Assembly: GCA_946413485.1 (NCBI GenBank)
Contig: CAMKKS010000001.1
Location: forward strand, 4,749-68,748
Direction of reading: 5' to 3'
Length of the DNA: 64,000 nucleotides
From: an uncultured Rickettsiales bacterium
Lineage (GTDB): Bacteria; Pseudomonadota; Alphaproteobacteria; Rickettsiales; Deianiraeaceae
This document shows, one piece after another, positions 246-53,676 of the stretch; the stretch's first letter is position 1; the number at the start of each line of letters is the position of its first letter. The position numbers were made by a program, and so were the translations under genes. The notes under the pieces were generated by a model that was not told the DNA's origin, made no database searches, and saw only the letters and a program-made list of their open reading frames with translations.

Positions 246-530
246 TTAAGAAGGTGCTCCAACATAAGCGTTAACAGCATTTAAATTAGTAAGTTCAACT
301 TTGTTTCTAGGTGCGGTAGGATCTTTGATGTAAATTCCTTTCTTTTCAAAAGTTACTGTTTCTTTTTCTGCTGGATTAACAATCCATGTGCCTTTCTGAT
401 ATGTTAATTTTTGACAGAAAAATTTATTATCCTTTTTAGATAAAATAACATAAGGAATTCCGTCATATTCGTCATACCATGAAACTAAACAATCAACAGC
501 TTCATTTAAAAAATAATTTGTAAAATTCAT
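246..530 (-). CDS. hypothetical protein with capsid-targeting-like (CTS-like) N-terminus
   Basis: 94-aa ORF; N-terminus MNFTNYFLNE/AVD fits leader M-x-F-x-x-[FY]-[FL]-x-E ending in L-x-E; TATAAATA box 33 nt upstream. Confidence 0.55.
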   Translation of the reverse strand: MNFTNYFLNEAVDCLVSWYDEYDGIPYVILSKKDNKFFCQKLTYQKGTWIVNPAEKETVTFEKKGIYIKDPTAPRNKVELTNLNAVNAYVGAPS

Positions 531-3151: not shown

Positions 3152-3709
3152 TTATTTAATATTTTTTAAAATATCTTTAAGAGCTTTAAACAAATGTTTA
3201 AATTTAACAACTTCTGTTTCAAGATTGATGTTTGAAACTTCAGAACCGATTTTAATAAACTGATAAAATCTTTCAAAACATTTAATCAAAGAGAGTTTTC
3301 TATAAATCAACTCATTTAAACAGTTTTCGTTTGTTTTTTGAACTTCTTGAGCGTAAGCAAATGTTTTGTTAACGTCATACTCATCAAGATTTATATCCAT
3401 CTCAAAAAATTTATCGTCTCTTAAATCCCACTCGGGAACATTCAGCCCTAATCTTGAAGCTGCATCCTTAAAAAGATTTGAACAAGGTTCTAAAAGCTCG
3501 TAAAAATTATCAATTTTAGCTTTATTTCGTAAAAGCTGAAGATCGTACTCATGATTAAAGAAAATATCGTCTCTGAAAGCTTTAGCATATTTTAAAGTAT
3601 CAAGAGTTATCTTTTCGGCACCGCCAACAAAATCCTTAAATTTAACAATTTTAGGTAGCTTATGATTATCAGCTTCGTTTATATTTTTTAAATATTCTTT
3701 AAATAACAT
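3152..3709 (-). CDS. hypothetical protein with CTS-like N-terminus
   Basis: 185 aa; MLFKEYLKNINE/ADN (I-N-E site). Confidence 0.6.
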   Translation of the reverse strand: MLFKEYLKNINEADNHKLPKIVKFKDFVGGAEKITLDTLKYAKAFRDDIFFNHEYDLQLLRNKAKIDNFYELLEPCSNLFKDAASRLGLNVPEWDLRDDKFFEMDINLDEYDVNKTFAYAQEVQKTNENCLNELIYRKLSLIKCFERFYQFIKIGSEVSNINLETEVVKFKHLFKALKDILKNIK

Positions 3710-3825: not shown

Positions 3826-4200
3826 TTAAATAATTTTATTTTCAGAACAGATAACGATAAACAGACAGGCTGAATCTTCGTCTTTCTTTAAATCTTCAAT
3901 CATATCTTTTAAAAAGATCTTTAAATCTTCTTCAAAATTTTCTGAAGGTTCAGAGTCGGCAAATCTGAAGGAATTTCCATCTTTTTTAAGAATTAAACCA
4001 TATTTGTTTTCAGAACCGTATTGATTTAAAATTTTGGCTACAATCTGAATTCTCTTTGCTTTAATCAGTTGATTAAAAACATTTAAGATAATTCCTAATT
4101 CTTTTGTGAGCTCAGCTTTTGAAGGTGCATCAGAATTACCTGAAATAAACTCGGAAGCTTTTGAAATAATATCAGCTTCTACTAAAAAATCTTTAAACAT
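3826..4200 (-). CDS. hypothetical protein with CTS-like N-terminus
   Basis: 124 aa; MFKDFLVE/ADI (L-V-E site). Confidence 0.55.
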   Translation of the reverse strand: MFKDFLVEADIISKASEFISGNSDAPSKAELTKELGIILNVFNQLIKAKRIQIVAKILNQYGSENKYGLILKKDGNSFRFADSEPSENFEEDLKIFLKDMIEDLKKDEDSACLFIVICSENKII

Positions 4201-7633: not shown

Positions 7634-8296
7634 TTATTTAAAATTTACAGGCTTCTTTGTTTTTGAACCTGTGAACATTCCTTTAGTGGATTTTGTCTTA
7701 AGATCAGGCGACTTAACCCATTTATCAAGATCTTGTTTAAAGTTTGCTGCATCCATAAACATTTCAGCCATATTCCAAGCGCCTGAAACATCCCAGCCTG
7801 AAATATCGGAATTAAATTTAACCGCTAGATTAAACATATTTGAGAAGCCTCTAGCTTTCTTTGTCACATTCCACTTTGATAAATCACCGCTAAAAACAGC
7901 ATTATTATAAAACATATAATCAAACAGCTGTACATTTGAAACGTTCCATTTTGAAATATCGCCGTTGAATTTTGACTCAGCAAACATCCACGACATATCT
8001 GTCACATTTTTAGTATTCCACTTTGAGATATCACCGTTGAATTTTGAAAGATGGAACATTCCTCTCATGCTTGTAACATTTGAAACATCCCACTTTGAGA
8101 TATCACCGTTGAAGTCTTTAAATTCTTGAAACAAATATGACATATCTTTAACATTTGAAACATCAATAAAGTTTAAGTCACAATTGTTTCCTTCCTTTTC
8201 GATTGTATCTCTTATAATGATTTCCAATTTAAAACGATTTTTTGGTTTTACAGTTTCAGCTTCATTTAATGAGCTTAAAAATTCTTTAAATAACAT
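7634..8296 (-). CDS. DUF285 / BspA-type leucine-rich repeat protein with CTS-like N-terminus
   Basis: Six roughly 24-aa repeats FNGDISKW(D/N)VSNVTxMxxMF; N-terminus MLFKEFLSSLNE/AET. Confidence 0.75.
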   Translation of the reverse strand: MLFKEFLSSLNEAETVKPKNRFKLEIIIRDTIEKEGNNCDLNFIDVSNVKDMSYLFQEFKDFNGDISKWDVSNVTSMRGMFHLSKFNGDISKWNTKNVTDMSWMFAESKFNGDISKWNVSNVQLFDYMFYNNAVFSGDLSKWNVTKKARGFSNMFNLAVKFNSDISGWDVSGAWNMAEMFMDAANFKQDLDKWVKSPDLKTKSTKGMFTGSKTKKPVNFK

Positions 8297-9514: not shown

Positions 9515-9578
9515 AATATTCGGAGAATGAAATTAAAAAATTTTTGATTTTCTATATATAGAATATTATAAAAATATT

Positions 9579-26251: not shown

Positions 26252-26548
26252 TTATTTATAATTTTCGTAATATTCTTTATAAGCGTTTATGATTTCGTTC
26301 TGTTGAACAATAAAACGCTTTAATTCCTGAAAATTTTTTGAAAGGTTTGAATATCCTTTAGGGTTTAAACATATTTTAGCTTCATCAGTTATGTTATAAA
26401 CTTCAAAATTATACGGAAGGAGCTCTAAAGGTTCAGGATTTTGAATATTTAACCTAGGTTTTGTTATTGATGTTGAACATCCGATTAAAAAGAGAAAACT
26501 CAGAAAGCTTAATCGCACGGTAAATTCTTTGAAATATTTTCTAAACAT
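26252..26548 (-). CDS. outer-membrane spanin (o-spanin lipoprotein)
   Basis: Signal peptide with lipobox LSFLFLIG/C; 98 aa; 5' end overlaps the i-spanin candidate by 40 nt. Confidence 0.6.
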   Translation of the reverse strand: MFRKYFKEFTVRLSFLSFLFLIGCSTSITKPRLNIQNPEPLELLPYNFEVYNITDEAKICLNPKGYSNLSKNFQELKRFIVQQNEIINAYKEYYENYK

Positions 26549-26999: not shown

Positions 27000-27119
27000 C
27001 TATATATCGGTATTTAGGTACTGCATATTGTATATTTTTGATATTTGAATTTTGTCTAATATAGCTGTATTAGGCAGAATGCCAATTTTTGAGATTTTTG
27101 ATATTTTGGCTTAAAAACA

Positions 27120-27407
27120 ACGTATTGAACTTTTATGAAAAGTCTATTACGTAATAAAATTTTTTTCAATTTCCTATATAATAATATTATTAAAAATATT
27201 TTAAATAAAAGCTTTAATAGAATTTGAGAGTGCTCTCAAATTCGATACTAAAAGTATTTTTATTATATTCTTTATATAAAGAACCTTGAAAATTGTTTTT
27301 GAAGTGAAAGAGAGTTCTGGAACTAGAGAAAAACTAGAACATTTAAATGTTTTATGAAAATTGAAAAAAAAAATACGTAATGACCTTTTCGCAAAAGTCT
27401 ATTACGT
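27120..27407. repeat. composite non-coding module
   Basis: Hairpin 27120-27152; TTTCAATTTCCTATATAATAATATT box; GAGAGTGCTCTC palindrome; TTCTTTATATAAAGAA; boxes 27311-27341; hairpin 27375-27407. Confidence 0.6.
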
Positions 27408-27428
27408 ATTATTGAGATGTTTTATTTT

Positions 27429-27896
27429 TTAACCAGCTGTGATATAATCTGAAGGTTTGCTCTTTGCGATGTAATTATTAACATTTTCGAGAGTTTGAGC
27501 AAAAGCTGAAAGACAATTTGCTACTTTAATAAAGTGATTGCCGGTTGCTTCACCATTACAGTTAAAACCGAGCTCAAAATAATCTTTCTTTGTTTTTCCT
27601 ACTTCGTAAATCTCGTTTCTGTCCATGATTGTTACAAAGTAAGGTCTTGTTGAGCCTTTATAATTAAAATCAAGGTCAACCCATAAATGATTATTTAAAA
27701 TATAAACATTTAACTTTTTAATTGTAGCAAAACCGTTTAAACCGTCTAAAAGAATTTTCAAAAGACTTTTATAACCTTTAGAATCTTCCATCTCTTTAAG
27801 ATCAACTTTTGTTTCATAATCTTTTGATAAATCTACTTCGTTGATCTGTTCTTCAGTTTTTTCTTCAGGTTTAAAATAATATTCTTTAAAATTCAT
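27429..27896 (-). CDS. CTS-leader protein (internal-protein candidate)
   Basis: 155 aa; MNFKEYYFKPEEKTEEQINE/VDL. Confidence 0.6.
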   Translation of the reverse strand: MNFKEYYFKPEEKTEEQINEVDLSKDYETKVDLKEMEDSKGYKSLLKILLDGLNGFATIKKLNVYILNNHLWVDLDFNYKGSTRPYFVTIMDRNEIYEVGKTKKDYFELGFNCNGEATGNHFIKVANCLSAFAQTLENVNNYIAKSKPSDYITAG

Positions 27897-27907
27897 TTTA
27901 AAAATCC

Positions 27908-28405
27908 TTAAATATATTTTTCAAAATCTTTTACAGAAGCAATGTTAAATTTATCTGAAGGATTTTTAACGATTGTTAAACCCATATTTTTCTTTGGATC
28001 GAATACTTTCTTGAGCTGTCTAAGAGCTTCTTCAAGGCATTCTTCAGCGTTTACCTTGTCCATTACGTGACCTTTAGCTGAAGTATCAATTTTGTTGATA
28101 TAATCAATAGCTTCTTTAAGGGTTAAATGAACATTTGCGTTGTTATTTTCTCTATCCCAAGTAGTAACACTGAATGAAACGGCAGCTGAATGGTCCTTTG
28201 AATTATAATCAATTCTGATTTTTGGAGCTACGTGCTCATAATAGGAATCTTCTTCCTCGTAGTGGACAACCAGTGTCTGAGGGGTTAACATTGTACCATA
28301 CTTGTTACAAAATCTTGAACGGGTCAAGGTCTTTTTAAGCAATTCAAGAACTGGTTCTGAAGCTTCTTTAATAATTTGTTCGTTTAAAAATTCTTTAAAA
28401 CTCAT
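27908..28405 (-). CDS. CTS-leader protein (internal-protein candidate)
   Basis: Start moved to MSFKEFLNE/QIIKE/A (AAGGAT SD); the track start 28459 would overlap the upstream gene. Confidence 0.6.
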   Translation of the reverse strand: MSFKEFLNEQIIKEASEPVLELLKKTLTRSRFCNKYGTMLTPQTLVVHYEEEDSYYEHVAPKIRIDYNSKDHSAAVSFSVTTWDRENNNANVHLTLKEAIDYINKIDTSAKGHVMDKVNAEECLEEALRQLKKVFDPKKNMGLTIVKNPSDKFNIASVKDFEKYI

Positions 28406-28415
28406 TTTAAAATCC

Positions 28416-28751
28416 TTACATATCGAAAGCGATATATGCTTTAACACCAAATTTAGCAAACGGATAACCGTGGGCTAAAATATTGTTTAATTCCATTTCC
28501 CTTGTTATCCACTCAGAAAATTCAGGAATCCAAATTTTTCTTACAAAGCCTTCGAAAAAGCTTGCTGCCGGCGCTTTACCACCGTTTTCTTTATAAGACA
28601 GTTTCTTTTTATTTTTTTCAATAAATGCTTTTGATTTAGGTAAATCGTTGTTATCAACAGTTACCGCGTAAATTTCCCAGAAAAACTGCTCAAAATCAAC
28701 TTTTACTTTTTCATTTAATGGGCATTCATTTAAATACTCTTTAAAATTCAT
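28416..28751 (-). CDS. CTS-leader protein (internal-protein candidate)
   Basis: 111 aa; MNFKEYLNE/CPLNE/K. Confidence 0.6.
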   Translation of the reverse strand: MNFKEYLNECPLNEKVKVDFEQFFWEIYAVTVDNNDLPKSKAFIEKNKKKLSYKENGGKAPAASFFEGFVRKIWIPEFSEWITREMELNNILAHGYPFAKFGVKAYIAFDM

Positions 28752-28762
28752 TTTAATATCCT

Positions 28763-29095
28763 TTAAAGTTTATAATATAAATCTTTTAACCAGGAATCAA
28801 CATATTTTATATTCATAGAATTTTTAAATTTTTCTAATTTTCCTAAAGATTTTTTAACATCTTTAGAACTTTCAAATTCATTTAAAAATTCTTTACAAAG
28901 TAAACATATTGAAACTGCTTTTAAAAGGTTCTCAGAAACATTTAAAAGAGGATAATCATTTTCGGAAATATCTTTAATAGAATTAAATTTTTTAGATTGT
29001 TTCTTAACTTCTGAATTATAAAAATCATAATCAGATTTAATCTTTGAAATTAAATTTTCTTCATTTTCTATTATAAAGATATCTTTAAAATTCAT
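28763..29095 (-). CDS. CTS-leader protein (internal-protein candidate)
   Basis: 110 aa; MNFKDIFIIE/NEE. Confidence 0.6.
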   Translation of the reverse strand: MNFKDIFIIENEENLISKIKSDYDFYNSEVKKQSKKFNSIKDISENDYPLLNVSENLLKAVSICLLCKEFLNEFESSKDVKKSLGKLEKFKNSMNIKYVDSWLKDLYYKL

Positions 29096-29104
29096 TATAA
29101 ATCC

Positions 29105-29410
29105 TTACTTAAAAATAATTTTCTTTAAATCTTCTTCATGTTTTGTTGTAAATTCTAAAAACTTTTCGAGAACCTTTAAATTGTTAACGAGGTCATAAGA
29201 AGGATAGCCATATTCTTCAGAAAACGAATAAAAAACAGGATTTTGAAAATTTATTGTAATACCAAACATAGCAGCAGAGTTGCCAGCTTCAAGACTTAAA
29301 ATATTTTTATTTAAATTTAAAACTTTTACTTTAAATTTATTTTCTTTAAAATAATTTTCAATCTCTTTTATAGCTTCGTTTCCTTCAGTTAAATAATCTT
29401 TAAAATTCAT
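29105..29410 (-). CDS. CTS-leader protein (internal-protein candidate)
   Basis: 101 aa; MNFKDYLTE/GNE. Confidence 0.6.
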   Translation of the reverse strand: MNFKDYLTEGNEAIKEIENYFKENKFKVKVLNLNKNILSLEAGNSAAMFGITINFQNPVFYSFSEEYGYPSYDLVNNLKVLEKFLEFTTKHEEDLKKIIFK

Positions 29411-29691
29411 TATAAATCCTCGTAGTATGCTATAAATTCGTTTTCCTCGTCATAAACCTTTAAATATTCTCGGTTTTTCTCAATTTTAATGTTTATGACC
29501 AATTCTTGACCTTTGTTAAAATATTTATGAAAAGGGTTTAAAACAGTGACATATAAACCGATGTCGTCTTCTCCAATTTTTCCTTGAAAAGCCGGCGAAC
29601 CGTCTAATCTTTTAAATCTTAAGATTTTTCCTACATACTTTTCTTTATACTCTCGGTTAACACTTTCTAAAATATAGTCTTTAAAATTCAT
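29410..29691 (-). CDS. CTS-leader protein (internal-protein candidate)
   Basis: 93 aa; MNFKDYILE/SVN. Confidence 0.6.
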   Translation of the reverse strand: MNFKDYILESVNREYKEKYVGKILRFKRLDGSPAFQGKIGEDDIGLYVTVLNPFHKYFNKGQELVINIKIEKNREYLKVYDEENEFIAYYEDL

Positions 29692-29704
29692 TTTATAAAT
29701 CCTT

Positions 29705-29729
29705 AAAAGGCACTTTTAAAGTGCCTTTA
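29705..29729 (-). terminator. rho-independent terminator after sheath gene
   Basis: AAAGGCAC-TTTAAAA-GTGCCTTTT on the minus strand. Confidence 0.6.
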
Positions 29730-29734
29730 AAAAA

Positions 29735-32203
29735 TTATTCAGTTACAACAACATTAAAGTTATTAACACCTACGTTGATAAATGTTAAATGAATAAATTC
29801 AGCAACATAAGTAGGCTTGATGTAAATATCCACATTCAGTTTATTTTCAGCAATAATCTGAGGAGTATTATTCGAAGTATCGCAAACAACTTTGAATTCT
29901 GTTATACCTCGTCCTGCCTGAACCTGTGCTAAATATGGTTTAATTGTTGAAATAACTTTGTTTCTTGTGAAAGCGTCATTAAATTCAAATACTGAATATC
30001 TGGACATTCTCGCTAAAGTTCTTTCGATTGTATTAAACAAGCATCTGATATTCACACGGTTAAACGATGAGTTGCGGTTCAACATTGTTTTCTGACCCCA
30101 AAGAACAGTGCCCTCACCTGGGAATGTGATAACAGGGTTAATTCCGTTAGTGTACAAAGTTCCACGTTGAGTCTGATTTGGAGCGTAAGCTAATTTTGTA
30201 ACATTCTTTAACTGACCACGATCTAAACCGGCAGCTGCCCACCACGAATCGTTTTCAGTTGAACATTTTGCTCTTAAACCTGCACAGTCACCGGCAATAT
30301 TCAACCATCTATAAACATCGTTATAACGGTCATACTGATATTTATAATTAGCACAAAGATTTATCCACATCGAATTGTAGTTTATAGAGTTTCTGAATTT
30401 TACAATGTTTGATGTTGCTGTGGACGCTTTTTGACCAACACAGATATTTGAACCGGCATACTCTAAAGGAATTCCACAATAAGCGATACAATCTTGACGC
30501 GTTTCAGCCAGATTTAACGCGCTTCGACCGTTGTCAAGTTCGTTTGCGATAATAATATCAACATCAATATCTTCTTTGTTATCGAAAACTTCGAAAGCTT
30601 CCATCAAATCGTCTTCTTGAATTTCAGAATCAGAAGCACATTCTAATGTTAAAGAACGTCCATAATATTGATTATTGATTGAATCATAGATAAAACAATA
30701 TGACGAAATGTTAGGAACTGTCATAGTTTGAGTTCTGTAAACAGGATTTCCTAAATAATCCAAAACTTGAACTAAATTGCCGTTTGGATCTTTAGCGGTT
30801 TTAACAATTTTATTACCGTAAACATCGAGAATATACTGCTCAACCTGAACGGAATAATCTTTTGCAACATTATCTTTAACATAAACAAGGTTTGACTGAC
30901 GGTTAATAATATCTTCTATATACATAGAATTATTATAGGCATCAACTTCTTTAGGGTCTAAAGAACATAACCATGTTTCTTTGATTTCAAGTTCAATCGG
31001 GTCGTAAATTACAACTGCGATCTGAGCAGAACCTAATTTAGGAGCATATTCGAACAATCCATCAATTGTTATTCCTTCGCAGACATATTTTGTACAATGA
31101 TTTCCTACAAATCTTGTGTCGTTAACAGCAAAATCCTGAGGAGTACAGATACAAATTCTGTATTTCGCGTCTTCAGTTCCTGGAGTTTTTGAGAAGAATT
31201 TTAATTTAGCAGAAACATTTGAAAATGCTAAAGAATCTTTTATTAAAGAAAAATGATCATCATTTTTAATCTGACGATTGAGCTTGAATAAAAATCCTGC
31301 ATCTTCTACAGTCGGGGTATTTTTCTCGTAAACTTCATAATTTTCGGTATACCACTCACCTGTGTTAATATCTTCTTTATCAACAGTCTTTGTTTTCTTT
31401 TGAGGATTATAATAAGCTGTTCTGTCAAGATATTCAGGAATTCTGAAAGGAATTGAGTATGTTGCCTTCTTTGTTTTCTTCCAATCAATCTGAAGCTCTT
31501 GAGCGGACTCATAATCTAAAGCTTCTGTTGAACCATTAACGGCAATATCAATTTTGAATAAAGGGGTGTTCGGAACAGCTGTAACTTCGCGATTATCAAC
31601 AATCATTGTCGGCGCTCTGTCTAATTTGATAGCATAAATTTTTTCCCGAACTTGAACTTGTGTTACAATTCCGTTTGCGTCAACCTGATCAATAATTCTT
31701 GTGATAGTGTCTTCAAGATAAGCTAAAACTTTGAATTTAGGATATGAGGCGTCTACAACATCAACTTCAGAATTTCCGAATGAAACAATATCACCGGTTT
31801 GAACATCAACATGTTTATCAACAAACGCCCATGAAACATCTGAAGTAATACCGTAAGTTGAAGTTCCGAATTCCTGAATACCCCAACCTTCTAAAGAGTT
31901 AAACTCTAAGAAAGCAGTATCTAAATTTTCAGCAGCGCCGTTAACATTACAGGCTCTTGAAATAAGAAGATTGTCAGCATACTGTAAAAAATTGTAACAC
32001 TGGAACCAGTCATTATAATTTGAGTTATTTGGTTTTCCGTAAAAACTGATTAACTCATCAACATTTGTAATTTGAGTGTATTTTTCCAACGGACCTTTCG
32101 TGAATTTGCCGGCAAAAACAGTTGTGCACTGTGAGTTATTTGTGGCAACAGTTGAAAGGTCTTTCTCGGTTAAATAAACACCTGGACTAACCATTTCAGT
32201 CAT
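29735..32203 (-). CDS. tail sheath protein (T4 gp18-like)
   Basis: 822 aa; MTEMVSPGVYLTEKDLSTVATNN..VFAGKFTKGP..ITNVDELISFYGKP..CYNFLQYADNLLISRA parallels T4 gp18 MTLLSPGIELKETTVQSTVVNN..ALAGKFQWGP..NFLQYGNDLRVVRA. Confidence 0.9.
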   Translation of the reverse strand: MTEMVSPGVYLTEKDLSTVATNNSQCTTVFAGKFTKGPLEKYTQITNVDELISFYGKPNNSNYNDWFQCYNFLQYADNLLISRACNVNGAAENLDTAFLEFNSLEGWGIQEFGTSTYGITSDVSWAFVDKHVDVQTGDIVSFGNSEVDVVDASYPKFKVLAYLEDTITRIIDQVDANGIVTQVQVREKIYAIKLDRAPTMIVDNREVTAVPNTPLFKIDIAVNGSTEALDYESAQELQIDWKKTKKATYSIPFRIPEYLDRTAYYNPQKKTKTVDKEDINTGEWYTENYEVYEKNTPTVEDAGFLFKLNRQIKNDDHFSLIKDSLAFSNVSAKLKFFSKTPGTEDAKYRICICTPQDFAVNDTRFVGNHCTKYVCEGITIDGLFEYAPKLGSAQIAVVIYDPIELEIKETWLCSLDPKEVDAYNNSMYIEDIINRQSNLVYVKDNVAKDYSVQVEQYILDVYGNKIVKTAKDPNGNLVQVLDYLGNPVYRTQTMTVPNISSYCFIYDSINNQYYGRSLTLECASDSEIQEDDLMEAFEVFDNKEDIDVDIIIANELDNGRSALNLAETRQDCIAYCGIPLEYAGSNICVGQKASTATSNIVKFRNSINYNSMWINLCANYKYQYDRYNDVYRWLNIAGDCAGLRAKCSTENDSWWAAAGLDRGQLKNVTKLAYAPNQTQRGTLYTNGINPVITFPGEGTVLWGQKTMLNRNSSFNRVNIRCLFNTIERTLARMSRYSVFEFNDAFTRNKVISTIKPYLAQVQAGRGITEFKVVCDTSNNTPQIIAENKLNVDIYIKPTYVAEFIHLTFINVGVNNFNVVVTE

Positions 32204-32237
32204 TTTAATCTCCGATTTTTAAAAGCATTTTTAATTA

Positions 32238-32245
32238 TATTTATA
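32238..32245 (-). promoter_or_regulatory. T4-type late promoter box TATAAATA
   Basis: 35 nt upstream of sheath ATG 32203. Confidence 0.5.
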
Positions 32246-32250
32246 ATATA

Positions 32251-32280
32251 AACACTGAAAACTTCAAGATTTTCAGTGTT
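32251..32280. terminator. hairpin terminator between portal and sheath genes
   Basis: AACACTGAAAA / TTTTCAGTGTT 11-bp stem, T-rich on both sides. Confidence 0.55.
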
Positions 32281-32304
32281 TTTTAAAATTTTATAAATAT
32301 GCTT

Positions 32305-33927
32305 TTAAACATTTTTCAAAAGATCGGCGTATTCTGAATCTTCTAAATCTTCCTCAGAATCTTCTTCTTTATCTTTTGTTATTTTGTTTAAATCATCAGC
32401 TTGAGTTGTGTACTCTTCAATTTCGTCACCGATAATAAATCCTGCATCTTCATAGAGTTTTCTGAAAGCTGGATCTTTGATTTCATGTTTGATATCAATC
32501 AGGTTCTGTTGAATTTCCTGCTCGGTGAATCCAAAAGTCTGTCTCATTAAGTTTGAAAATGACATCACGGTTCCACCGATATCTTTAGCCGAGGACCAGG
32601 AATCAATTTTTCCCTGTAAAACAACAGATTTCATTTTTTCTATAAATAAATTTTCATTAGAAAAAACAATTTCGATATCTGAATCTCTTCTGTTCCATTC
32701 AGACTCTTTTAAAACACCTGTTGAAATTACTTCACGTTTTAAAAGATCTTTAAAGAATTCACAATAAACTTTTCGAACTCTCGAGATAAAGTTCATAAAT
32801 TTAACATCTTCTGTTGTTGTATCGGTAGGGTCAGAAGAGAATGTGTGGTCAGCATCAGGGTCAATATCAAGATGTGAAGATGGAATGTGTAAAGAACGAT
32901 AAAGTTTTTTACAAAAATAGATAATATCTGTCAACTCACCTAAATTTCCGGACTCATCAATAGTTGTAACTTCAGTTCCTCTTGAGCCTGAACGGTTCGC
33001 AAACCAGTAATCTTCCACCATCGATGTGATGTGCTGCTGATTTGTTACTTCACCTGTTTCATTATTATAAAACTTTTTATATCTGAACTGCTTTTGAATA
33101 TCCTTCATGTACTCTTCTGCTCGTTTTGTAGGCAGATCTCCGACGTCAACGTTAAAAACTCGTCTTGACATCGACCGTGAAAATCTTAAAGGAATTAAAA
33201 GATCTTCTAAAGTTTTTAACATATTTGCGGATTTGATAGCATACTCAAGATATGAAAGACACAAATGGTCATGCCAGATACCGAAATCCGTTCTCACAAT
33301 CTCTTCAATCTGATATTCTTCGTCTTCTTTCTTGTTGAAATAAAGATTGCTCAAACCGACATTGTTATCTGCGTATTTCCATGTTTGAGTTTCAGCATCA
33401 AAATAAAACCCTACAGGGTCAATCATTCTGATAGCTTGAATTCCTTTTTTAATTCGTTTAGGGTCATACTCGCAGTGAACAATCATTTGACCATCAATAT
33501 ATGAACGTCTGATAAAATCAAAAAGGTTCTTATTAAAATTACCTAATTTAATAATCTTTTTCCATGCTTTTTCAAAACCTTTTTGAAGCTTTTGATTTTT
33601 ATCATTAAGATTGAACTTTAAAGGAAAACCATCATAGCTGAAAATAATTTCGTCAACAATGATATCAATAGCGTTTGTCACTTCTGCCTGCATCGCTACT
33701 TGACGATATGACATTATTTTTTCCATCTGTTTTAAGATTAAATCTGTTCTGTCAACCGATGTAAAATACGATGCTGCTTTAGCGTCATAATCGAAAAAGT
33801 CATTAAATCTCCCTGGACCTGTATCATCAGAAAGGTTGTTTATAACCTTCTCAGGATTTACAGTTGAAGATGCTTTAGTTTTTTTATGAGGGGTGAAAAA
33901 ATTTTTAAATTGTTCAAGTAATAACAT
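32305..33927 (-). CDS. portal protein (T4 gp20-like)
   Basis: 540 aa; DPKRIKKGIQAIRMIDP, LEDLLIPLRFSRS..RRVFNVDVGDLP..AEEYMKDIQ, NQQHITSMVEDYWFANRSG..TEVTTI parallel T4 gp20 ([72 protein letters not shown]). Confidence 0.9.
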   Translation of the reverse strand: MLLLEQFKNFFTPHKKTKASSTVNPEKVINNLSDDTGPGRFNDFFDYDAKAASYFTSVDRTDLILKQMEKIMSYRQVAMQAEVTNAIDIIVDEIIFSYDGFPLKFNLNDKNQKLQKGFEKAWKKIIKLGNFNKNLFDFIRRSYIDGQMIVHCEYDPKRIKKGIQAIRMIDPVGFYFDAETQTWKYADNNVGLSNLYFNKKEDEEYQIEEIVRTDFGIWHDHLCLSYLEYAIKSANMLKTLEDLLIPLRFSRSMSRRVFNVDVGDLPTKRAEEYMKDIQKQFRYKKFYNNETGEVTNQQHITSMVEDYWFANRSGSRGTEVTTIDESGNLGELTDIIYFCKKLYRSLHIPSSHLDIDPDADHTFSSDPTDTTTEDVKFMNFISRVRKVYCEFFKDLLKREVISTGVLKESEWNRRDSDIEIVFSNENLFIEKMKSVVLQGKIDSWSSAKDIGGTVMSFSNLMRQTFGFTEQEIQQNLIDIKHEIKDPAFRKLYEDAGFIIGDEIEEYTTQADDLNKITKDKEEDSEEDLEDSEYADLLKNV

Positions 33928-36014: not shown

Positions 36015-37115
36015 TTAAAAATCATAACTTAAGAACTTATAATCACCCATTAAATGAGTAGGGAAAACAGTACCATCTTTAGAGCGGATATTTAATTTTA
36101 TTTCAAGAATTCCATCAAGATTTAAAAGAACATCAACTCGCTTCGCTGCACCTTCTTTAGGATAAAGAACTTGAGCTTTTGAGATGTTTGAAGATAATTT
36201 TTTAGCTTTTTCTGGAGTCATTTCAAGAACATGAACTTTGCTTCCCATATCATGTAAAAGAACGTAATTATATCCGATTAAATTATATAAAAAGTTTTTA
36301 AAATCTTTATTATTTAAATTAACATCTACATATTGTTTTTCTTTTACTTTTGAAGATCCCTGATCAAGCCCTTTATATTCAGTGAAAATCTTACAAAATC
36401 TTACTGGTTCAATTCCTAAAAAGTTCAGAAGCTGTAAAGCACCATTAGAAAGTTCTTTAGGATTTCCTGTTTCAGCACATTTTGTCATTTCGGATATTTT
36501 AAGAATTTTCTTTAAACCTAAATTTACGAATGTTACTGAAGGCCCAGCTTTGATAGATAAATACAATTCTCTTTCTCTTCCGCCTGCATCAGTAAAAACT
36601 AAAGTACAGTCAGTGAGAATAGAGCCATCTCCTTCAATTGTTAAAATACCGTTTTGAACATTTGTTTTTCTTGATTTATTTAAAGAACCTTCCTCTCTTA
36701 CGGCAACTAAAGTGCATTCAGGCCATTTTTCTTCGGCAATATCTAAAACTTTTCTCATATAATCTCTTGAGATAAAACCGGTTTTTTGATATTCTTTCCA
36801 TTCAGCTCCGATTTGAGATTCAACTTTAAATCCGCGGTTTTGATAGTTTGAATAAACACCTTTAAAAATCTTATTCCATTTAAGACCGTTAGAGAAAACA
36901 AAATCTGAAATTGCTTCAGGATTGTTATTGTAAATATCCTCAAGCTTGTCGGCATCTTCCTGGGGCAGAATATAACGGTTTTTATCTAAAACTTCTTTTT
37001 CACCAAATCCAATTTCCTTTCCATCTCGGATATCTTTAATAACAAGCTTTCCGTATTTCAAAAAGCGGTTATTCTGCATGTAAGCTTCCGCTAATTCTTT
37101 AAAATTCTTAAACAT
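36015..37115 (-). CDS. nuclease-like protein (possible PD-(D/E)XK), paralogue of 55907-57004, CTS-like N-terminus
   Basis: 366 aa; MFKNFKELAE/A; ILTDCTLVF..RELYLSIKAG; C-terminal blocks LQLLNFLGIEPVRFCKIF, IGYNYVLLHDMGSKVHVLEMT, KLNIRSKDGTVFP shared with 55907-57004. Confidence 0.4.
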   Translation of the reverse strand: MFKNFKELAEAYMQNNRFLKYGKLVIKDIRDGKEIGFGEKEVLDKNRYILPQEDADKLEDIYNNNPEAISDFVFSNGLKWNKIFKGVYSNYQNRGFKVESQIGAEWKEYQKTGFISRDYMRKVLDIAEEKWPECTLVAVREEGSLNKSRKTNVQNGILTIEGDGSILTDCTLVFTDAGGRERELYLSIKAGPSVTFVNLGLKKILKISEMTKCAETGNPKELSNGALQLLNFLGIEPVRFCKIFTEYKGLDQGSSKVKEKQYVDVNLNNKDFKNFLYNLIGYNYVLLHDMGSKVHVLEMTPEKAKKLSSNISKAQVLYPKEGAAKRVDVLLNLDGILEIKLNIRSKDGTVFPTHLMGDYKFLSYDF

Positions 37116-39594: not shown

Positions 39595-39614
39595 TTTTAA
39601 TCCTTTTTTAAATG

Positions 39615-39622
39615 TATTTATA
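39615..39622 (-). promoter_or_regulatory. T4-type late promoter box TATAAATA
   Basis: 21 nt upstream of ATG 39594. Confidence 0.45.
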
Positions 39623-39625
39623 ATT

Positions 39626-41023
39626 TTAAAAATCTTTTAAAATATCTTCAGGTATTTTTTCTGAAAATTCTTTTGTTTCTATCCCTGGGATTTTATCTGT
39701 TACTTTTTTAAAATCATTATAATTATCTTTAGAACATAAAACACAATTTATATTCAAATCTAAAGATATTTTATTTAACATTGTTATTAAAGAAGCTGAA
39801 GTAAATTTAAAAATCTTTATATCTTTAAATATATCTTTGATATTTTTTTCTTTTAAAGAAAAATCATCACCTTTAGGATTTAAAACACCCAAAACAACAA
39901 AATCATAATTTTTTAAAGCTTCTTTAATAATACTTTTATGATAATCTGTAATATTTAAAAATCTTCCTGGAATTAAACAACCGTTATTTCCTTCTAAGCT
40001 TTTAATTATTAACTTTTTAGCAACTTCCTGAATATCATCACAGATTTGAACAACATTCTTTTTAGCATTTTTAAAATCAGGATTGAATTTTTTAATTGCT
40101 TTTGAGAGCTCTTTTAATCTTTCATTTAAAGAACCTGAATTTATGTTTTTAATGATTTTTAAAGCTGCATTTTTAACATTCTTTTTATATTCAATTTCGT
40201 CGTCAAAATCTAAAGTAAATTTTTCTTTGATTTTAGCTCGAGCTTCCTGATCAAGCTGGTAAACCTGTTGAACTTTTAAGATTTTATCATTATATTTAAT
40301 TACAACGCCCTCTTCTTTTCCACCATACTTTGACTCAACGTTTAAAAATAATTCCTGTAATTGTTTCCACAAAACTTCAGGATCAGTCCAATCAAGGTTC
40401 ATTTTTAAATATTCTTTTTTAATATTATTATTTAAAATTCCAGCTTCAAAATCCTTTTTAGTTCCTAAAATTCCTTTGAATAATTTATTAGGAATATCGA
40501 TTTTTAAAATTTCCGCATATTTTTCACGGTCTTTAAATTCCATTTCACCAGGTGAAGTTTTTAATAATCCGAATTTTTCAGTATAAGATGTTTTTGAATA
40601 ACCAACTAAAACCATCTTATGCGGATTTTTATAATTAGAGCTTAAAGTCGGTTTACGCTGTAAAAACTCAATAGCAAATTCATAATTTAACGGTAAATCA
40701 CATTTCCCTAGATTTTTAAAGTGATCAATAACAATCTTATATTGTGAAATACCGATAGAAGATTTTTTAATAGCTAAAGTTGACTGAGACGAAAATTCGT
40801 CTTCAAAAAAGACAGAACCTTTATAAGCAATAATCCAATCATTAAAATCACCGTTATTTGCTTTATGAATAACGGTCAGTTTGGTTCCATCTGTTTTGTG
40901 TTCAATCTCAACTTCTGATTTTAAAAATTCTTCTATTTTAGATTTAGAATTTAAAAATTTTTCAGCAGATAAAATTGAAATATCAAGCTGTTTTGCTTCT
41001 TTTAAATATTTTATAAAATCCAT
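39626..41023 (-). CDS. ATP-dependent ligase (RNA/DNA ligase nucleotidyltransferase) fused to a second HIGH-motif nucleotidyltransferase domain
   Basis: Motif I HKTDGTKL (KxDG), motif IV EGVVIK, motif V KILKVQ; C-terminal CLIPGRFLNITDYHKSIIKEAL; N-terminus MDFIKYLKE/A. Confidence 0.6.
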   Translation of the reverse strand: MDFIKYLKEAKQLDISILSAEKFLNSKSKIEEFLKSEVEIEHKTDGTKLTVIHKANNGDFNDWIIAYKGSVFFEDEFSSQSTLAIKKSSIGISQYKIVIDHFKNLGKCDLPLNYEFAIEFLQRKPTLSSNYKNPHKMVLVGYSKTSYTEKFGLLKTSPGEMEFKDREKYAEILKIDIPNKLFKGILGTKKDFEAGILNNNIKKEYLKMNLDWTDPEVLWKQLQELFLNVESKYGGKEEGVVIKYNDKILKVQQVYQLDQEARAKIKEKFTLDFDDEIEYKKNVKNAALKIIKNINSGSLNERLKELSKAIKKFNPDFKNAKKNVVQICDDIQEVAKKLIIKSLEGNNGCLIPGRFLNITDYHKSIIKEALKNYDFVVLGVLNPKGDDFSLKEKNIKDIFKDIKIFKFTSASLITMLNKISLDLNINCVLCSKDNYNDFKKVTDKIPGIETKEFSEKIPEDILKDF

Positions 41024-42256: not shown

Positions 42257-42257
42257 T

Positions 42258-42863
42258 TTAAAATCCTTTTTTAACAATATTTATACTATTCAAATATTTT
42301 TCAGTGTACTTTTTAAAATCTTTATCTGAAATTTCAACAGGATAAAAATCATTTTCGGGGTTGTCAACGCAAACGTTTATTCTTGGAACTTCATTATCCG
42401 TAGGGGATTTTTCATGTGTATGGCCGTGGAAAATCATCAAACAATTTGACTCATCAAAAATCTGTCTTAATCCTTTCATTTTAGGATCCATTATCTGATT
42501 TTCATTTAACGGATAATGGCAAAGAAAATAATCCCCTAAAATGATATAATCTTCAACAGCTAAAAATCCGCACTCTAAATAAAAAGAGTCAGGAAATTTA
42601 TCGTGATTTCCTCGGATTAAAATCTTTTTCCCTTTAAGATTTTTAAGAATTGTTTTAAACATATCTTTATTTGTTTTATTTAAAAAAGCAATATCCCCTA
42701 GGTGAAAAACAATATCGTCGTCAGATACTTTTTCGTTATATCTTTCAAAGATTGTTTTAATACAGTCAATAACGCCTTCTGAAGAAAAATCAAACGGACG
42801 GTTACAGTATTTAATAATATTTTGATGGCCAAAATGCTGGTCGGAAGTTAAAAATATTTTCAT
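42258..42863 (-). CDS. calcineurin-like metallophosphoesterase
   Basis: SDQHFGH, LGDIAF, RGNHDK, CHYP, FHGHTH: the full MPP motif set. Confidence 0.8.
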   Translation of the reverse strand: MKIFLTSDQHFGHQNIIKYCNRPFDFSSEGVIDCIKTIFERYNEKVSDDDIVFHLGDIAFLNKTNKDMFKTILKNLKGKKILIRGNHDKFPDSFYLECGFLAVEDYIILGDYFLCHYPLNENQIMDPKMKGLRQIFDESNCLMIFHGHTHEKSPTDNEVPRINVCVDNPENDFYPVEISDKDFKKYTEKYLNSINIVKKGF

Positions 42864-43517: not shown

Positions 43518-45020
43518 TTAGTACTTTCTTGATGGTTTAGCAAGTACACTTGGTGCCTGCCTTGCGAGAACAGTATTCGCAAAGCTTACGCCAAATGAAC
43601 GAGCGTAGGTCTTTGCACGGTCATTGCTCTTAGGATCAGAAACACCTGGAGTTGTAGCCAAAGCGTAACGAGTTTTAGCAATGATAACAGGCTGACCGGT
43701 AACGTAATCTGTAACCTTTGTGAAGGACAGAGGAACATACGGACAGAAGAAGCCCATAGCATCACGGCTGTTAGCGCCCTTGTAAAGAACGGTGCAGAAG
43801 TCGTCCTTAGCATACTGATCGATAACAACCTTGTAGCGGTTATCGAATACACCAGCAACACCACCGGAAACAGGAGCGATAATATCGGAATTAGTAGGAG
43901 CCAGCTGGAATGAACCAACCTGTTCTAACATGGTAGCAACCATTGGAGAAACCAGAAGGATATTACCTTGTCCACGCTTTGTATCTAAACCGATAATTGC
44001 GGATTCTTTAGCAATACGAATTGCTTGAGCACGATATCTTTCAATTTCCCAACGACCATCAGGAACCTGAACATTAGTCTGAGCACCGAATACAGTATCA
44101 GGTAACCAGGTAGAATTATCCTTAACAAAATCAACGATTTCACGGTCAATTTCAGCCTGAATTTCGTACTGCATCAAGCTCATCAGTTCTTCATCAGCGG
44201 TTAAACCGTGCTGAGCTTTTAAGTCCTGATAAAGTTCAACAGTGTACTTACCTTTCAGAGCACGAGAATCAGCGGCAATTGGTTTTCTTGAAATACTGAA
44301 ACCAACTTCACGCATTTCGTCGCCAAGGTGTTCAGCTTCAACTGTCTTATAAGGACCAGTGAAGTTCTTCAGAATGTGACCGAAAGAAGATTCGTTAGTG
44401 TACACTGCGGTTACTGTCAGATTAGTAACAGCTGTGCCGATATCAAATTTATCGCCAACATTCAGATTTTGATTTACATGATTTGTAGTATTGTCTACAT
44501 CAACAGTAGCAAGGATCTTGTCGTCTTCGATGTACAGAACATAACCTTTATCAGCACCGGCAGAATTCTTGATCTTTGAAGTAGAAGTTTGAACGGTACC
44601 AGCCTGAACAGCAGCCTTAATTAAATCTGCATCAGTCAAAGAAACCTGATAGATAACACCAGCTGGTTTTGGACGATCGTCAACTTTCTTAAGACCATCA
44701 CCAAGATACTGATTAACGAGAGCATAGATAAAGCCGGTAGGCATGCTCATTGGCTGAACACCAAGTAATTCGTTAGCAATCAGATTTGGATAGATACGTC
44801 TAATCATAGGGATTATGATTGGGGTGAATTGAGCAACGTCACCGGTTAAAGTACCTTCACTCAAAGTTTTCTGAATATCAATCTGAGTGTTTTCAATAAG
44901 TTGAATAATTGTTTCTTTTTGAGAATCTGTCATCGGACCGAATTTTTCAGATTCCAAAACACTTTTTGCAAATTCATTAGAGGTTGCCTTCTGAACTGCT
45001 TCGCTTAATAACATATCCAT
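43518..45020 (-). CDS. major capsid protein (T4 gp23-like)
   Basis: 500 aa; IIPMIRRIYPNLIANELLGVQPMSMPTGFIYAL parallels T4 gp23 MGMVRRAIPNLIAFDICGVQPMNSPTGQVFAL; several L-x-E sites in the first 60 residues; visibly higher G+C than neighbours. Confidence 0.9.
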   Translation of the reverse strand: MDMLLSEAVQKATSNEFAKSVLESEKFGPMTDSQKETIIQLIENTQIDIQKTLSEGTLTGDVAQFTPIIIPMIRRIYPNLIANELLGVQPMSMPTGFIYALVNQYLGDGLKKVDDRPKPAGVIYQVSLTDADLIKAAVQAGTVQTSTSKIKNSAGADKGYVLYIEDDKILATVDVDNTTNHVNQNLNVGDKFDIGTAVTNLTVTAVYTNESSFGHILKNFTGPYKTVEAEHLGDEMREVGFSISRKPIAADSRALKGKYTVELYQDLKAQHGLTADEELMSLMQYEIQAEIDREIVDFVKDNSTWLPDTVFGAQTNVQVPDGRWEIERYRAQAIRIAKESAIIGLDTKRGQGNILLVSPMVATMLEQVGSFQLAPTNSDIIAPVSGGVAGVFDNRYKVVIDQYAKDDFCTVLYKGANSRDAMGFFCPYVPLSFTKVTDYVTGQPVIIAKTRYALATTPGVSDPKSNDRAKTYARSFGVSFANTVLARQAPSVLAKPSRKY

Positions 45021-45057: not shown

Positions 45058-45906
45058 TTAATATAATCTACTTAAACGTTTTTCTAAATCGCTTTGTTCT
45101 CTTGACTCGTTTAAAGTCTCAGGACGTGAAACTTTTACGTAATCATTCTTAACAGGGGATTTAGTTGGAACTCTTACATATTCTTCTGAAACTGCTTCTT
45201 CTTCAGGCTCTTCTGGTTCTTCGTGGCATTTTTCAGCAAGCTTTGCTTCGTCAATAATTGCTTGTTTCAGATTTTCTAATTTATTTATGTATCTTGAAGA
45301 TTTTTCAAAAACAACATTGTTAGCGCAACGTTCGAATTTAACAGCAGCTTCGCCTTCTAAACCTTCCTTAAGTTCTGCGATAATACCCATCTTAATGAGC
45401 TTCTGATTTTCCTTAAGAAGATTTGATTTTTCTTCTTCAAGCTTCTGCATAGCGGCTAAAGTCTTTAACATCTTATTATTTTCTGAAATTGTCTTTTCAG
45501 GATTTTGATTTTCAACAGACTCAGCAATCTTCTGAGCAGAAACACCAGCCATGGTACAGGCATTAGCTAAAGAGTCAAGAATGAAGTTATTTTTATAATC
45601 AGCTTCAGTTACTGCAAAAATATCTTCGTGTTCGGAAATAAAACTGTTAACAGTTTTATCAATATATTTTTCAATAATTGAATTCAGGCTTTCCAATCTA
45701 CCGTCAACGAATTTGATTGCGTCTTCTTTGATTTCATTTTTATATGATTCGCAAAGGTCATTTAAACGCAAAGTTTCTTCTTCAATTTTCTGGTCGGCTA
45801 AAATTGAAGCTTTTGATTCGATTAAGCTTTCAATTTTGCTTTCCAACTCTTCTTGAAGATCGTCGGTAAATGCTTCACCTAAAACTTCCTTAAATTGTTC
45901 AAGCAT
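45058..45906 (-). CDS. prohead scaffolding core protein (gp22-like by position and composition)
   Basis: Acidic coiled-coil protein between protease and MCP; start placed at ATG 45906 (GGAG SD). Track start 45921 is a TTG inside that SD. Confidence 0.6.
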   Translation of the reverse strand: MLEQFKEVLGEAFTDDLQEELESKIESLIESKASILADQKIEEETLRLNDLCESYKNEIKEDAIKFVDGRLESLNSIIEKYIDKTVNSFISEHEDIFAVTEADYKNNFILDSLANACTMAGVSAQKIAESVENQNPEKTISENNKMLKTLAAMQKLEEEKSNLLKENQKLIKMGIIAELKEGLEGEAAVKFERCANNVVFEKSSRYINKLENLKQAIIDEAKLAEKCHEEPEEPEEEAVSEEYVRVPTKSPVKNDYVKVSRPETLNESREQSDLEKRLSRLY

Positions 45907-45978: not shown

Positions 45979-46953
45979 TTAAATTTTTTGAAGGAAATTT
46001 TCAAATAATTCTCTAATTGCGTCTTGTTTTTGTGCTAATGTGATTGATTCTTTAATCTCTTCAGGTTCTTGAACAGGTTCTGGTTCTTGAACTTGTTCTT
46101 GAACAGGTTCTGGTTCTTCAGGTTGAACTTCTGGAACTGGTTCTGGTTTTAAAGACTCTTTGATTTCGTTTAAAGAATTTTTTAAATCTTCTTTTAAAGA
46201 ATCTTTAAAAGATTTTAAAGAATTTTCGATTTGTTCTTGAATATTTACATCGGAAATTTCGGGTTCAGTTTTAATTTCCGCTTCAACATTATTTACATTT
46301 CCTTCGTCAATATTTTCGACAGAATTTTCAGGTTCTTTTAATTTTTCGATAATATTTCCGAATTTATCAATTTCATAAGTTTTATCTTGAACAATTCCCT
46401 CACAAAGTCTGTGAGCTTCACACATACCGTTCATTGTTGCGTTATAATCTGAAGGATTAGGAACAACATCATAAGTGATTAACTTAAAGCTTTCAACAAT
46501 ACCGTTTTTAACAGAACCTACACCTCTTGAAGATACTGAAATTTTAACATCATTATCAACTAAAGATTTTAACTGATTAGCTTGAGGATTATCTAAAAGA
46601 ACAGCTTCACCCATAACGTATTGGCCTTCAATCCATAATTTTGTTATTTTTGAAACTGCTTTCATAGGGTCGACTTCAGTTCTTGCCGGGTGTTCGTATT
46701 CCATCAAAGTGTTGATAGAACCTGACTTAATTTCATTCTGATATTCGGCGACATTACGTTCCCACAAAGGTCTTGGATAAGTTCTACCATTACGGTTTTT
46801 CTCACCTATAGTAGAGAAAACACCTCTGATTTTATATTTTTTCTCAGATTTACCAGTTGCTTCGTTGATTTCCTCTTCTTTAACAACTGACAAACCTTGA
46901 GTATCTGAATCAAATATTAAAGAGCTCATGTACATCTCCTTAAATTCCGTCAA
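45979..46953 (-). CDS. prohead core protease (T4 gp21-like)
   Basis: RNGRTYPRPLWERNV, MEYEHPARTEVDPMKAV, VSSRGVGSV parallel T4 gp21 NKRLYPKRILEKAV, ELNHPPRANVDPMQAA, VSSRGLGSL; C-terminal acidic/Pro repeat EPEPVQE. Confidence 0.85.
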   Translation of the reverse strand: MTEFKEMYMSSLIFDSDTQGLSVVKEEEINEATGKSEKKYKIRGVFSTIGEKNRNGRTYPRPLWERNVAEYQNEIKSGSINTLMEYEHPARTEVDPMKAVSKITKLWIEGQYVMGEAVLLDNPQANQLKSLVDNDVKISVSSRGVGSVKNGIVESFKLITYDVVPNPSDYNATMNGMCEAHRLCEGIVQDKTYEIDKFGNIIEKLKEPENSVENIDEGNVNNVEAEIKTEPEISDVNIQEQIENSLKSFKDSLKEDLKNSLNEIKESLKPEPVPEVQPEEPEPVQEQVQEPEPVQEPEEIKESITLAQKQDAIRELFENFLQKI

Positions 46954-53280: not shown

Positions 53281-53676
53281 ATGAATTTTAAAGATTTTTT
53301 CAACTTAAACGAGAGTTATGACAATAAGATAATGAAGAACTCAGAGGCTTATAAAAATATTTTAAAAATTTTTAGCAAACACAAAATTAAAGTTAAAAAT
53401 TTAATGACGATTGCTCTTAAGAGCCAAAATTATATTTCCGTCGTTCCTGATTTGGATTTAGACAATTTTTCATTTGAATGTAGAATAAATAAAATCTCTT
53501 CTTTAAAGAAAGAAGATTTTTTCAATCTTTCTGTTGATTTTGGAAAGGTTTTTTCAGTTGAGTCAGCTTTGATTTTATCTGAAAAATTAAAATCTGTAGC
53601 TCTTTGCCTTAAAGAGCTTAACGATTATTTAAAAAATGTTGATATTTTAGAATTTTACGATCCCGACGATCTATAA
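53281..53676 (+). CDS. hypothetical protein with CTS-like N-terminus
   Basis: 131 aa; MNFKDFFNLNE/SYD. Confidence 0.55.
   Translation: MNFKDFFNLNESYDNKIMKNSEAYKNILKIFSKHKIKVKNLMTIALKSQNYISVVPDLDLDNFSFECRINKISSLKKEDFFNLSVDFGKVFSVESALILSEKLKSVALCLKELNDYLKNVDILEFYDPDDL

Follow-up and report, generated by a model that had tools for sequence, protein, structure and literature searches.

Internal proteins of T4-like phages and a candidate counterpart

The closest described counterparts of the locus reported here are the internal proteins of the T-even phages. In T4, Ip1, Ip2 and Ip3 were recently shown to block one particular GmrSD type IV restriction enzyme apiece, a function known for T4 only (PMC12373910), and T-even Ip loci are portrayed, in the passages of PMC3012670 and PMC12373910 devoted to them (the latter citing Repoila et al. 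1994), as hot spots in which the encoded proteins are diverse and have only their leader in common. This leader is the capsid targeting sequence (CTS). According to the section of a review (PMC9026906) that covers the work of Mullaney & Black, the first 10 residues of T4 IPIII are enough for head incorporation, and the same section assigns aromatic residues 4 and 7 to targeting and residues 8 and 10 (I and E) to processing. As read from NC_000866, T4 IPII and IPIII start MKTYQEFIAE↓A and IPI starts MKTFKEFTSTTTPVSTITE↓A (MKTFKEF...ITE↓A; arrows mark cleavage sites, here and below mostly predicted). We analyzed a stretch of 64,000 nucleotides, hereafter the window, from a contig deposited under an uncultured Rickettsiales bacterium (CAMKKS010000001.1, assembly GCA_946413485.1, positions 4,749 to 68,748 of the forward strand), in which six small genes between positions 27429 and 29691 begin with a similar leader. 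These genes are likely to be a hypervariable cluster for T4-type internal proteins, carried by an uncultured myovirus that is T4-like but diverged. This reading was proposed in a first-pass annotation of the same DNA, which had given the T4 leader MKTYQEFIAE correctly, and it is supported here by the leader, the head assembly genes, the late promoters and the turnover of the genes among relatives.

Set beside the T-even Ip proteins, the window genes show the same basic design. The leader is the sole sequence common to small, unrelated proteins, and its consensus M-N-F-K-E-Y-L-x-E places F3, Y/F6, L/I7 and E9 at the spacing of the T4 CTS, one residue nearer the initiating Met, with aromatics at the two targeting positions and a putative I/L-x-E cleavage site. 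The tetrapeptide FKEF is common to the window leader and T4 IPI, and leaders of 10 residues are present in relatives (for example, MITFDEFINE↓A). In the leader genes as a whole, the residue at −3 of the predicted junction is L or I (M once), E precedes the cut and mostly A, S or G follows it. The genome also codes for a gp21-family protease and a gp22 scaffold, late expression is predicted and the cassettes vary among close relatives. In several respects, however, the locus departs from the T-even pattern. Its leader is one residue shorter (MNFKEYLxE vs MKTYQEFIAE), it lies directly downstream of the tail sheath gene and not near e/tRNA or 57B, and it comprises 6–8 cassettes per array with at least 7 leader genes elsewhere in the 64 kb, whereas T4 has three. 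The bodies resemble no Ip, and the phage lies far outside Tevenvirinae.

Two further systems bear on the comparison. T4 Alt, a large ADP-ribosyltransferase that is carried in the head, trimmed by the prohead protease (gp21) and injected, is a precedent for the 220–465-aa leader proteins of the window. The Alt propeptide is different and shorter, however, and its C terminus is processed too (PMC9026906), whereas the large cargos of the window bear the same leader as the small ones, on other bodies (a restriction-endonuclease-like fold, phrog_27149 and DUF285). In phiKZ, 201phi2-1 and SPN3US, many head-internal proteins are cut after Glu by a T4-related prohead protease at redundant propeptide sites (PMC9026906, PMC5694885). 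These jumbo phages differ in capsid lineage context, their cleavage motif is S/A/G-x-E rather than L/I-x-E, and no common 10-residue leader has been described for their inner-body proteins. A phiKZ-like inner-body reading was rejected on the basis of the −3 residues given above and of head genes that belong to T4 families. In the literature searched, we found no paper that joins the CTS with KVP40, cyanophages, Campylobacter or Aeromonas phages, or RB49, and two genome reviews of the T4 superfamily leave internal proteins unmentioned.

Six tandem genes with a common leader

The six genes lie head to tail on the minus strand from 29691 to 27429, with gaps of 0–12 nt, and their products of 93, 101, 110, 111, 165 and 155 aa all start M-[NS]-F-K-[DE]-[YFI], followed by (L/I)-x-E at residue 9–10 or, in the last, at residue 20. 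The starts listed in the first-pass annotation (29691, 29410, 29095, 28751, 28405 and 27896) were confirmed. Cassette 1 (29410..29691, 93 aa) begins MNFKDYILE↓S, cassette 2 (29105..29410, 101 aa) MNFKDYLTE↓GNE↓A, cassette 3 (28763..29095, 110 aa) MNFKDIFIIE↓N, cassette 4 (28416..28751, 111 aa) MNFKEYLNE↓CPLNE↓K and cassette 5 (27908..28405, 165 aa) MSFKEFLNE↓Q, whereas cassette 6 (27429..27896, 155 aa) has the long leader MNFKEYYFKPEEKTEEQINE↓V. The start of cassette 5 is likely to be the ATG at 28405, because an AAGGA ribosome-binding site precedes it and independent gene calls on metagenome contigs give 165 aa; an upstream TTG at 28459 is less likely.

To place these N termini against background, the pattern M[NSL]FK[DE][FYI] was searched in the six-frame translation of the window, which gave 10 matches, 9–10 of them at starts of open reading frames (ORFs), with ~0.002 expected from amino-acid composition. 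A stricter leader rule picked out 13 of 77 predicted N termini but none of the 241 Met residues inside proteins (Fisher p = 4e-9), and when applied to all 15,889 internal positions it matched two. Six leader genes had been reported previously; all six are real, but the extent of the set was understated, as at least 7 further strict-leader genes are present in the window. A secretory or lipoprotein signal peptide was considered and rejected, the leaders being 9–20 residues long, charged (K, D/E) and free of a hydrophobic core. A true lipobox was seen only in the neighboring spanin gene (26252-26548).

Beyond the leader, the earlier remark that the bodies cannot be aligned was borne out: the mature parts have no pairwise similarity by blastp (all E > 0.07, 8-sequence database), and searches of the six cassettes against Pfam and PHROG returned sub-threshold noise only. 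For the 165-aa cassette, a homologue search of 5.8 billion proteins recovered only its own 98% cluster, and a single-sequence AlphaFold model was unusable (pLDDT 36). For the 155-aa cassette, exact look-up found no record of the product, and an exhaustive HMMER search gave one fragment, one spurious repeat match and one distant homologue (P0037, 42% identical), which likewise begins MTFRDYL. Compared with a 97% identical relative (L064), the array genes have pN/pS values of 0.05–0.30 (pooled 0.12, at pS 0.17), resembling the sheath gene, and can thus be taken as real genes under purifying selection. Cassette 1 has a pN/pS of 0.06 in this comparison, and cassette 2 evolves fastest, with a pN/pS of 0.30 and 87% amino-acid identity vs ~97% for the flanking genes.

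Turnover of cassettes in relatives

The parallel with hypervariable Ip cassettes drawn in the first-pass annotation gained weight from close relatives, among which cassettes turn over with breakpoints inside the leader. An IMG/VR contig whose sheath is 97% identical (L001) matches the locus at ~96% identity save for one clean 598-bp insertion, which adds two cassettes of 87 and 91 aa. The ends of this insertion or deletion fall within a 42-nt leader, ATGAATTTTAAAGARTATTTAAATGAATGCCCNTTAAATGAA, that is common to the 87-, 91- and 111-aa genes and encodes 14 aa. The three copies of this leader in the same contig differ at three sites, all synonymous, and their upstream ribosome-binding regions differ. 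Cassette 4 of the window occupies this hypervariable slot, for which 13 contigs from different samples, with shared genes 95–99% identical, display six configurations: [111], [87,91,111], [91], [87], [111,87] and [87,111], given as product lengths. In a relative with an 88% identical sheath (L002), one unrelated leader gene, encoding 142 aa, takes the place of the array behind the sheath gene, and in a more distant one (L065, 40–49% identity), a 79-aa gene starting MNFKDFITE↓G still stands directly after the sheath gene. Slot variation and breakpoints within the leader agree with T-even Ip loci as the relevant passages of PMC3012670 and PMC12373910 describe them.

Leader genes elsewhere in the window

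The seven further strict-leader genes are dispersed over the window and encode proteins of diverse size. On the minus strand they comprise 246..530 (94 aa, MNFTNYFLNE↓A), 3152..3709 (185 aa, MLFKEYLKNINE↓A), 7634..8296 (220 aa, MLFKEFLSSLNE↓A), 39626..41023 (the 465-aa phrog_27149 protein, MDFIKYLKE↓AKQLDISIL), 55907..57004 (a 365-aa phrog_8438 protein, MNFKEFMMLE↓K) and 59124..59786 (220 aa, MNFIDYVSQLSE↓A); the seventh, 53281..53676 (131 aa, MNFKDFFNLNE↓SYD), is on the plus strand. Those starting at 530, 3709 and 59786 have late promoters of their own. Degenerate leaders were noted at starts 4200 (3826..4200 on the minus strand, 124 aa, MFKDFLVE↓A), 37115 (36015..37115 on the minus strand, a 366-aa phrog_8438 paralogue with a late promoter, MFKNFKELAE↓AY), 39594, 19341, 58039 and 38320.

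Several of these proteins have recognizable bodies. The body encoded at 7634-8296 is built from DUF285 units, which are leucine-rich repeats of the BspA type (Pfam E 3e-50) and would not be expected in a protein presumed to lie inside the head. With 29 homologues, AlphaFold modeled the 365-aa protein at a pLDDT of 84, and the best PDB match of the model was the restriction endonuclease HinP1I (E 1e-4, target TM-score 0.46), with weaker matches to the viral YqaJ and UL24 nuclease folds. The invariant residues of phrog_8438, D183-X18-S202-x-K204, resemble what we take to be the HinP1I motif, SD-X18-Q-x-K. On the strength of the model, a nuclease-like cargo is plausible. PHROG 8438, whose function is not known, also occurs in T4-like cyanophages, and both window paralogues carry a leader resembling the CTS. 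A start of the 365-aa gene at ATG 57055 was rejected, as this ATG lies within a repeated non-coding element whose neighboring copy ends in a stop codon; this short element, AATACGTTATGA...AAGTTCATTACGTT, recurs immediately before the gene (57060-57215, minus strand), and its ATG creates a spurious longer ORF.

For the 465-aa protein, assignment as a ligase was rejected, the sequence K-T-D-G being visible by itself with no family match behind it. PDB sequence searches with this protein and with the phrog_8438 profile found nothing. The gene belongs to a late operon (38557-42863, minus strand) together with the gene for a calcineurin-like phosphoesterase at 42258-42863 and those for a phrog_19290 protein and for a protein of 345 aa whose weak match is cytidylyl/NMN-adenylyltransferase-like. 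Two members of the operon have leader-like N termini, and its products may together repair or modify nucleic acids. In the Campylobacter phage CP220, the 465-aa and 345-aa counterparts form one 503-aa gene (gp026) that adjoins a "virion structural protein".

The leader as a removable protein module

Two protein families occur with or without the leader and, where present, it always ends in Glu directly before the conserved mature N terminus. Among 34 phrog_8438 homologues, some start directly with MAY(N/S/D)(I/F)(I/V/F)PK, and others carry an extension whose terminal Glu stands right before (A/G/S)Y.F.PK, as in MITFDEFINE↓AYSFIPKS, MLNFSQFMSE↓AYSFIPKS, MLSFTDYLEE↓SYSFLPK, MKTFLKFADQLHE↓GYTFIPKS, MLKFKSFLELAE↓GYTFVPKS and MKDLVDYYLEKTVSE↓AYNIIPNS. 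A cut after this Glu would thus produce the N terminus that the leaderless proteins have after removal of Met. For phrog_27149, the CP220 orthologue starts MQKDQIDISIL without a leader, as against MDFIKYLKE↓AKQLDISIL in the window and MLGMTKGFKKYLLE↓GKNQLDIS in a 183-kb contig (L024, IMGVR_UViG_3300033146_005641). Orthologues with and without it mark the leader as an add-on module. Its length may change while its key features stay: the L002 counterpart of the 53281 gene starts MSFKEFLKNKYMLE↓SYD vs MNFKDFFNLNE↓SYD in the window, with FK(D/E)F and the x-E↓SYD junction kept.

The leader was also found in other T4-like contigs with only 28–50% core-protein identity. In the 183-kb contig, ~9 genes within 11 kb (3884-10195) start MF[KR]x[LI]F[TI]E; this sister form of the leader is clustered even more densely than the leader in the window. 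In CP220, the tandem paralogues gp042/043 start MKFSDFLEE↓Q. A scan of viral contigs for the leader pattern gave many single matches, about half of them out of frame or unrelated, and for this reason only T4-like loci confirmed by tblastn were used.

This distribution bears on the possibility that the array consists of ordinary tandem paralogues, with bodies diverged beyond recognition, 5′ ends kept alike by gene conversion and a leader without function. The tandem layout, the similar sizes and the identical 42-nt repeats would all be expected of such paralogues. The leader, however, sits on dispersed, unrelated families (DUF285, phrog_8438 and phrog_27149) and in distant phages, orthologues exist with and without it, and the bodies retain no residual similarity. 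We regard an origin of this kind as highly improbable.

A second possibility is that the conserved 5′ end acts only as a nucleic-acid element, for translation initiation, recombination or both, with no targeting role for the peptide. Across the array, the ribosome-binding site and the first five codons are near-identical in DNA, the leader demonstrably serves as a recombination site and codon bias at 29% GC narrows synonymous choice. Several observations run the other way. The three LNECPLNE leaders of the slot keep their coding part through synonymous differences, despite differing ribosome-binding regions, and the codons at position 5 are GAA, GAG, GAT and GAC, always acidic. In distant phages, variable leaders keep the aromatic spacing and the terminal Glu at the mature N terminus, the scaffold protein bears the motif at another offset from its start codon, and a translation element leaves the (L/I)-x-E junction unexplained. 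A purely nucleotide-level role is disfavored by these sequence comparisons, and we consider it very unlikely.

Head and tail genes

The window (~29% GC) contains a T4-type virion gene module, from which the phage can be described as an uncultured, deeply diverged T4-like myovirus. In megablast, 27000-33000 matched none of 50,697 phage records, so that the phage lacks a close relative with annotation. Upstream of the array, which it anchors, lies the gp18-like tail sheath gene (29735..32203, minus strand), with best identity of 45% to Vibrio and Campylobacter myoviruses, and a Pfam Portal_T4 match covers 32305-33927. The gp21-type protease claimed earlier at 45979-46953 was upheld: the gene (45979..46953, minus strand) matches the PHROG 207 head maturation protease (E 5e-51) and Pfam Peptidase_S77 (E 2e-22). 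Next to it are a gp22-type scaffold (45058..45906, minus strand; Pfam T4_CASP), with a late promoter at 45940, and a major capsid protein of the gp23 family (43518..45020, minus strand), 34% identical to T4 gp23 and with the Pfam Gp23 domain from residue 62. The Peptidase_S77, T4_CASP and Gp23 matches exceed the curated Pfam cut-offs.

Both the capsid protein and the scaffold were found to have the N-terminal L-x-E sites mentioned in the first-pass annotation. The capsid protein has a putative propeptide of ~55 aa ending QKTLSE↓GTLTG, and its L-S-E↓G site at residue 55 aligns with the N-terminal stretch ELLRE-STTT of T4 gp24. The scaffold starts MLEQFKEVLGE↓A, in which FKE-hydrophobic-L-x-E is spaced differently from the start codon, and contains 17 (L/I)-x-E sites. 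A gp2-like DNA end protector, tail tube genes and Rz-type spanins are also encoded in the window. There are three tandem tail-tube (gp19-like) paralogues (47999-48595, 48677-49213 and 49210-49803, minus strand), pairwise 25–28% identical, and L065 likewise has three.

The presence of the motif in the scaffold itself favors the main alternative, that the leader proteins are accessory parts of the prohead core or scaffold, like T4 gp67/gp68, and that they are targeted, cleaved and then degraded or expelled before DNA packaging, serving head assembly rather than being injected. In its favor, too, a leader gene (MNFKDFLLE↓S) lies between the protease and the scaffold/capsid genes in L047, and T4 core proteins are cut at multiple (L/I)-x-E sites (PMC9026906). 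Presence and absence of cassettes among phages 95–99% identical and the replacement of the array in L002 fit dispensable cargo and not assembly parts, however. The bodies are unrelated, folded-looking and under purifying selection, and the cargos include enzyme-like proteins. Taken with this evidence, a role confined to the prohead core seems unlikely.

Expression signals

Expression of the array was examined by way of promoter and hairpin positions. A T4-type late promoter, TATAAATA, is located at 32238..32245 on the minus strand, 42 nt upstream of the sheath gene, and is the only late promoter at a gene start upstream of the array. The sequence was not found inside the array (27429-29691); a further match lies within the sheath gene at 30346. 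Structural genes, among them those for sheath, portal, scaffold and tube, have the promoter sequence 28–42 nt before their starts, as do the leader genes starting at 530, 3709, 37115, 39594 and 59786. An attenuator-like stem-loop (29706..29728, minus strand; −15.6 kcal/mol, z −4.5) stands between the sheath stop codon and the ribosome-binding site of cassette 1, and a terminator hairpin with a U-run (27365..27407, minus strand; −16.7 kcal/mol, z −6.7) closes the six-gene unit. Both hairpins were folded directly, as a generic sigma-70/terminator scan missed them in AT-rich noise. The array is probably a late transcription unit fed by read-through from the sheath promoter, lateness here being deduced from promoter positions rather than transcripts.

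Fourteen intergenic copies of a 33-nt palindrome, ACGTAATrrrCTTTTnnnAAAAGyyyATTACGT, were found in the window (at 9439, 9482, 11450, 11688, 24963, 25170, 27375, 33997, 35001, 35322, 42930, 51369, 51422 and 57183), one of which closes the six-gene array. Because most have T-runs on both strands, they look like bidirectional terminators, and the family might be involved in module shuffling too.

Elsewhere in the window, a complete 271-aa flagellin is encoded at 54913-55728 on the minus strand (Pfam Flagellin_N E 2e-43, Flagellin_C E 1e-23), an unusual cargo for a phage that is kept in L002 at 83%. Its nearest cellular matches (50–60%) are from rumen and gut Aeromonadales, namely Succinimonas, Ruminobacter and metagenome-assembled genomes of Succinivibrionaceae, which hints at the host of the phage.

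Proposed pathway and points against it

In the internal-protein reading, the array would be transcribed late, for the most part by polymerase reading through from the late promoter of the sheath gene, and bounded by the stem-loop upstream and the terminator downstream. The 9–20-residue CTS, M-x-F-K-(D/E)-(Y/F)-(L/I)-x-E, would dock each protein through its two aromatics on the gp22-type core during prohead assembly. The gp21-family (Peptidase_S77) protease would then cut after the Glu of (L/I)-x-E and free the mature protein in the head, from which it would exit with the DNA at infection. Identical leader DNA would act as a recombination handle by which unrelated cassettes are gained, lost and reordered in the phage population. 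Docking, cleavage, packaging and injection of the leader proteins are all inferred, and a role of the cargos as early-acting counter-defense or host-takeover factors is speculative and drawn only by analogy with T4 Ip1-3.

A number of points weigh against this reading. Packaging, cleavage and injection are deduced from the genes, and the specificity of the protease comes from alignment. The array leaders are near-identical in both DNA and protein, the former on account of strong AT codon bias, which makes the two levels inseparable within the array alone. With ~17% of predicted genes bearing a leader, far more than the three in T4, one may ask whether the head could hold all the products and whether the motif serves some broader purpose. 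Not all members match well: position 6 is I in cassette 3, an early L-x-E is lacking in cassette 6, and the genes at 58039 and 38320 have Y/F-L-E only. Finally, no mature part resembles T4 Ip1-3 or any known anti-defense protein.

Implications for T4-like phages

The Ip/CTS mechanism of the T-even phages is already known; what is new is its apparent occurrence in a distant uncultured lineage, at another genomic position and with a much larger leader-tagged set. It is less expected that the FKEF core persists in so distant a phage, that the repertoire is so large and that shuffling can be seen at the population level. The cassette polymorphism is a clean natural example of module exchange through a short coding repeat, and the leader might serve as a portable tag by which foreign proteins are loaded into the heads of T4-like phages other than coliphages. 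In the literature searched, proteins of this type have been catalogued only for T-even coliphages. The N-terminal motif together with the (L/I)-x-E rule could nominate injected proteins of uncultured phages and so yield a focused list of orphan genes for anti-defense screens. Because injected proteins act before any phage gene is expressed, they are prime candidates for first-strike counter-defense.

More tentatively, the T4 CTS may be an address label of ancient origin that is portable, serves a wide T4-like clade and has been expanded here, so that ~15–20% of the window genes would encode head cargo; we offer this as a possibility that falls somewhat short of probable. If it is true, the cargo would include two proteins of restriction-endonuclease fold, the 465-aa K-T-D-G protein of phrog_27149 and the DUF285 repeat protein, and a scan for the N-terminal motif would give a sequence-based catalogue of injected proteins in uncultured T4-like phages. 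The phage would then inject a full set of enzymes and not just a handful of small inhibitors, and recombination at the leader would reshuffle that set within populations.

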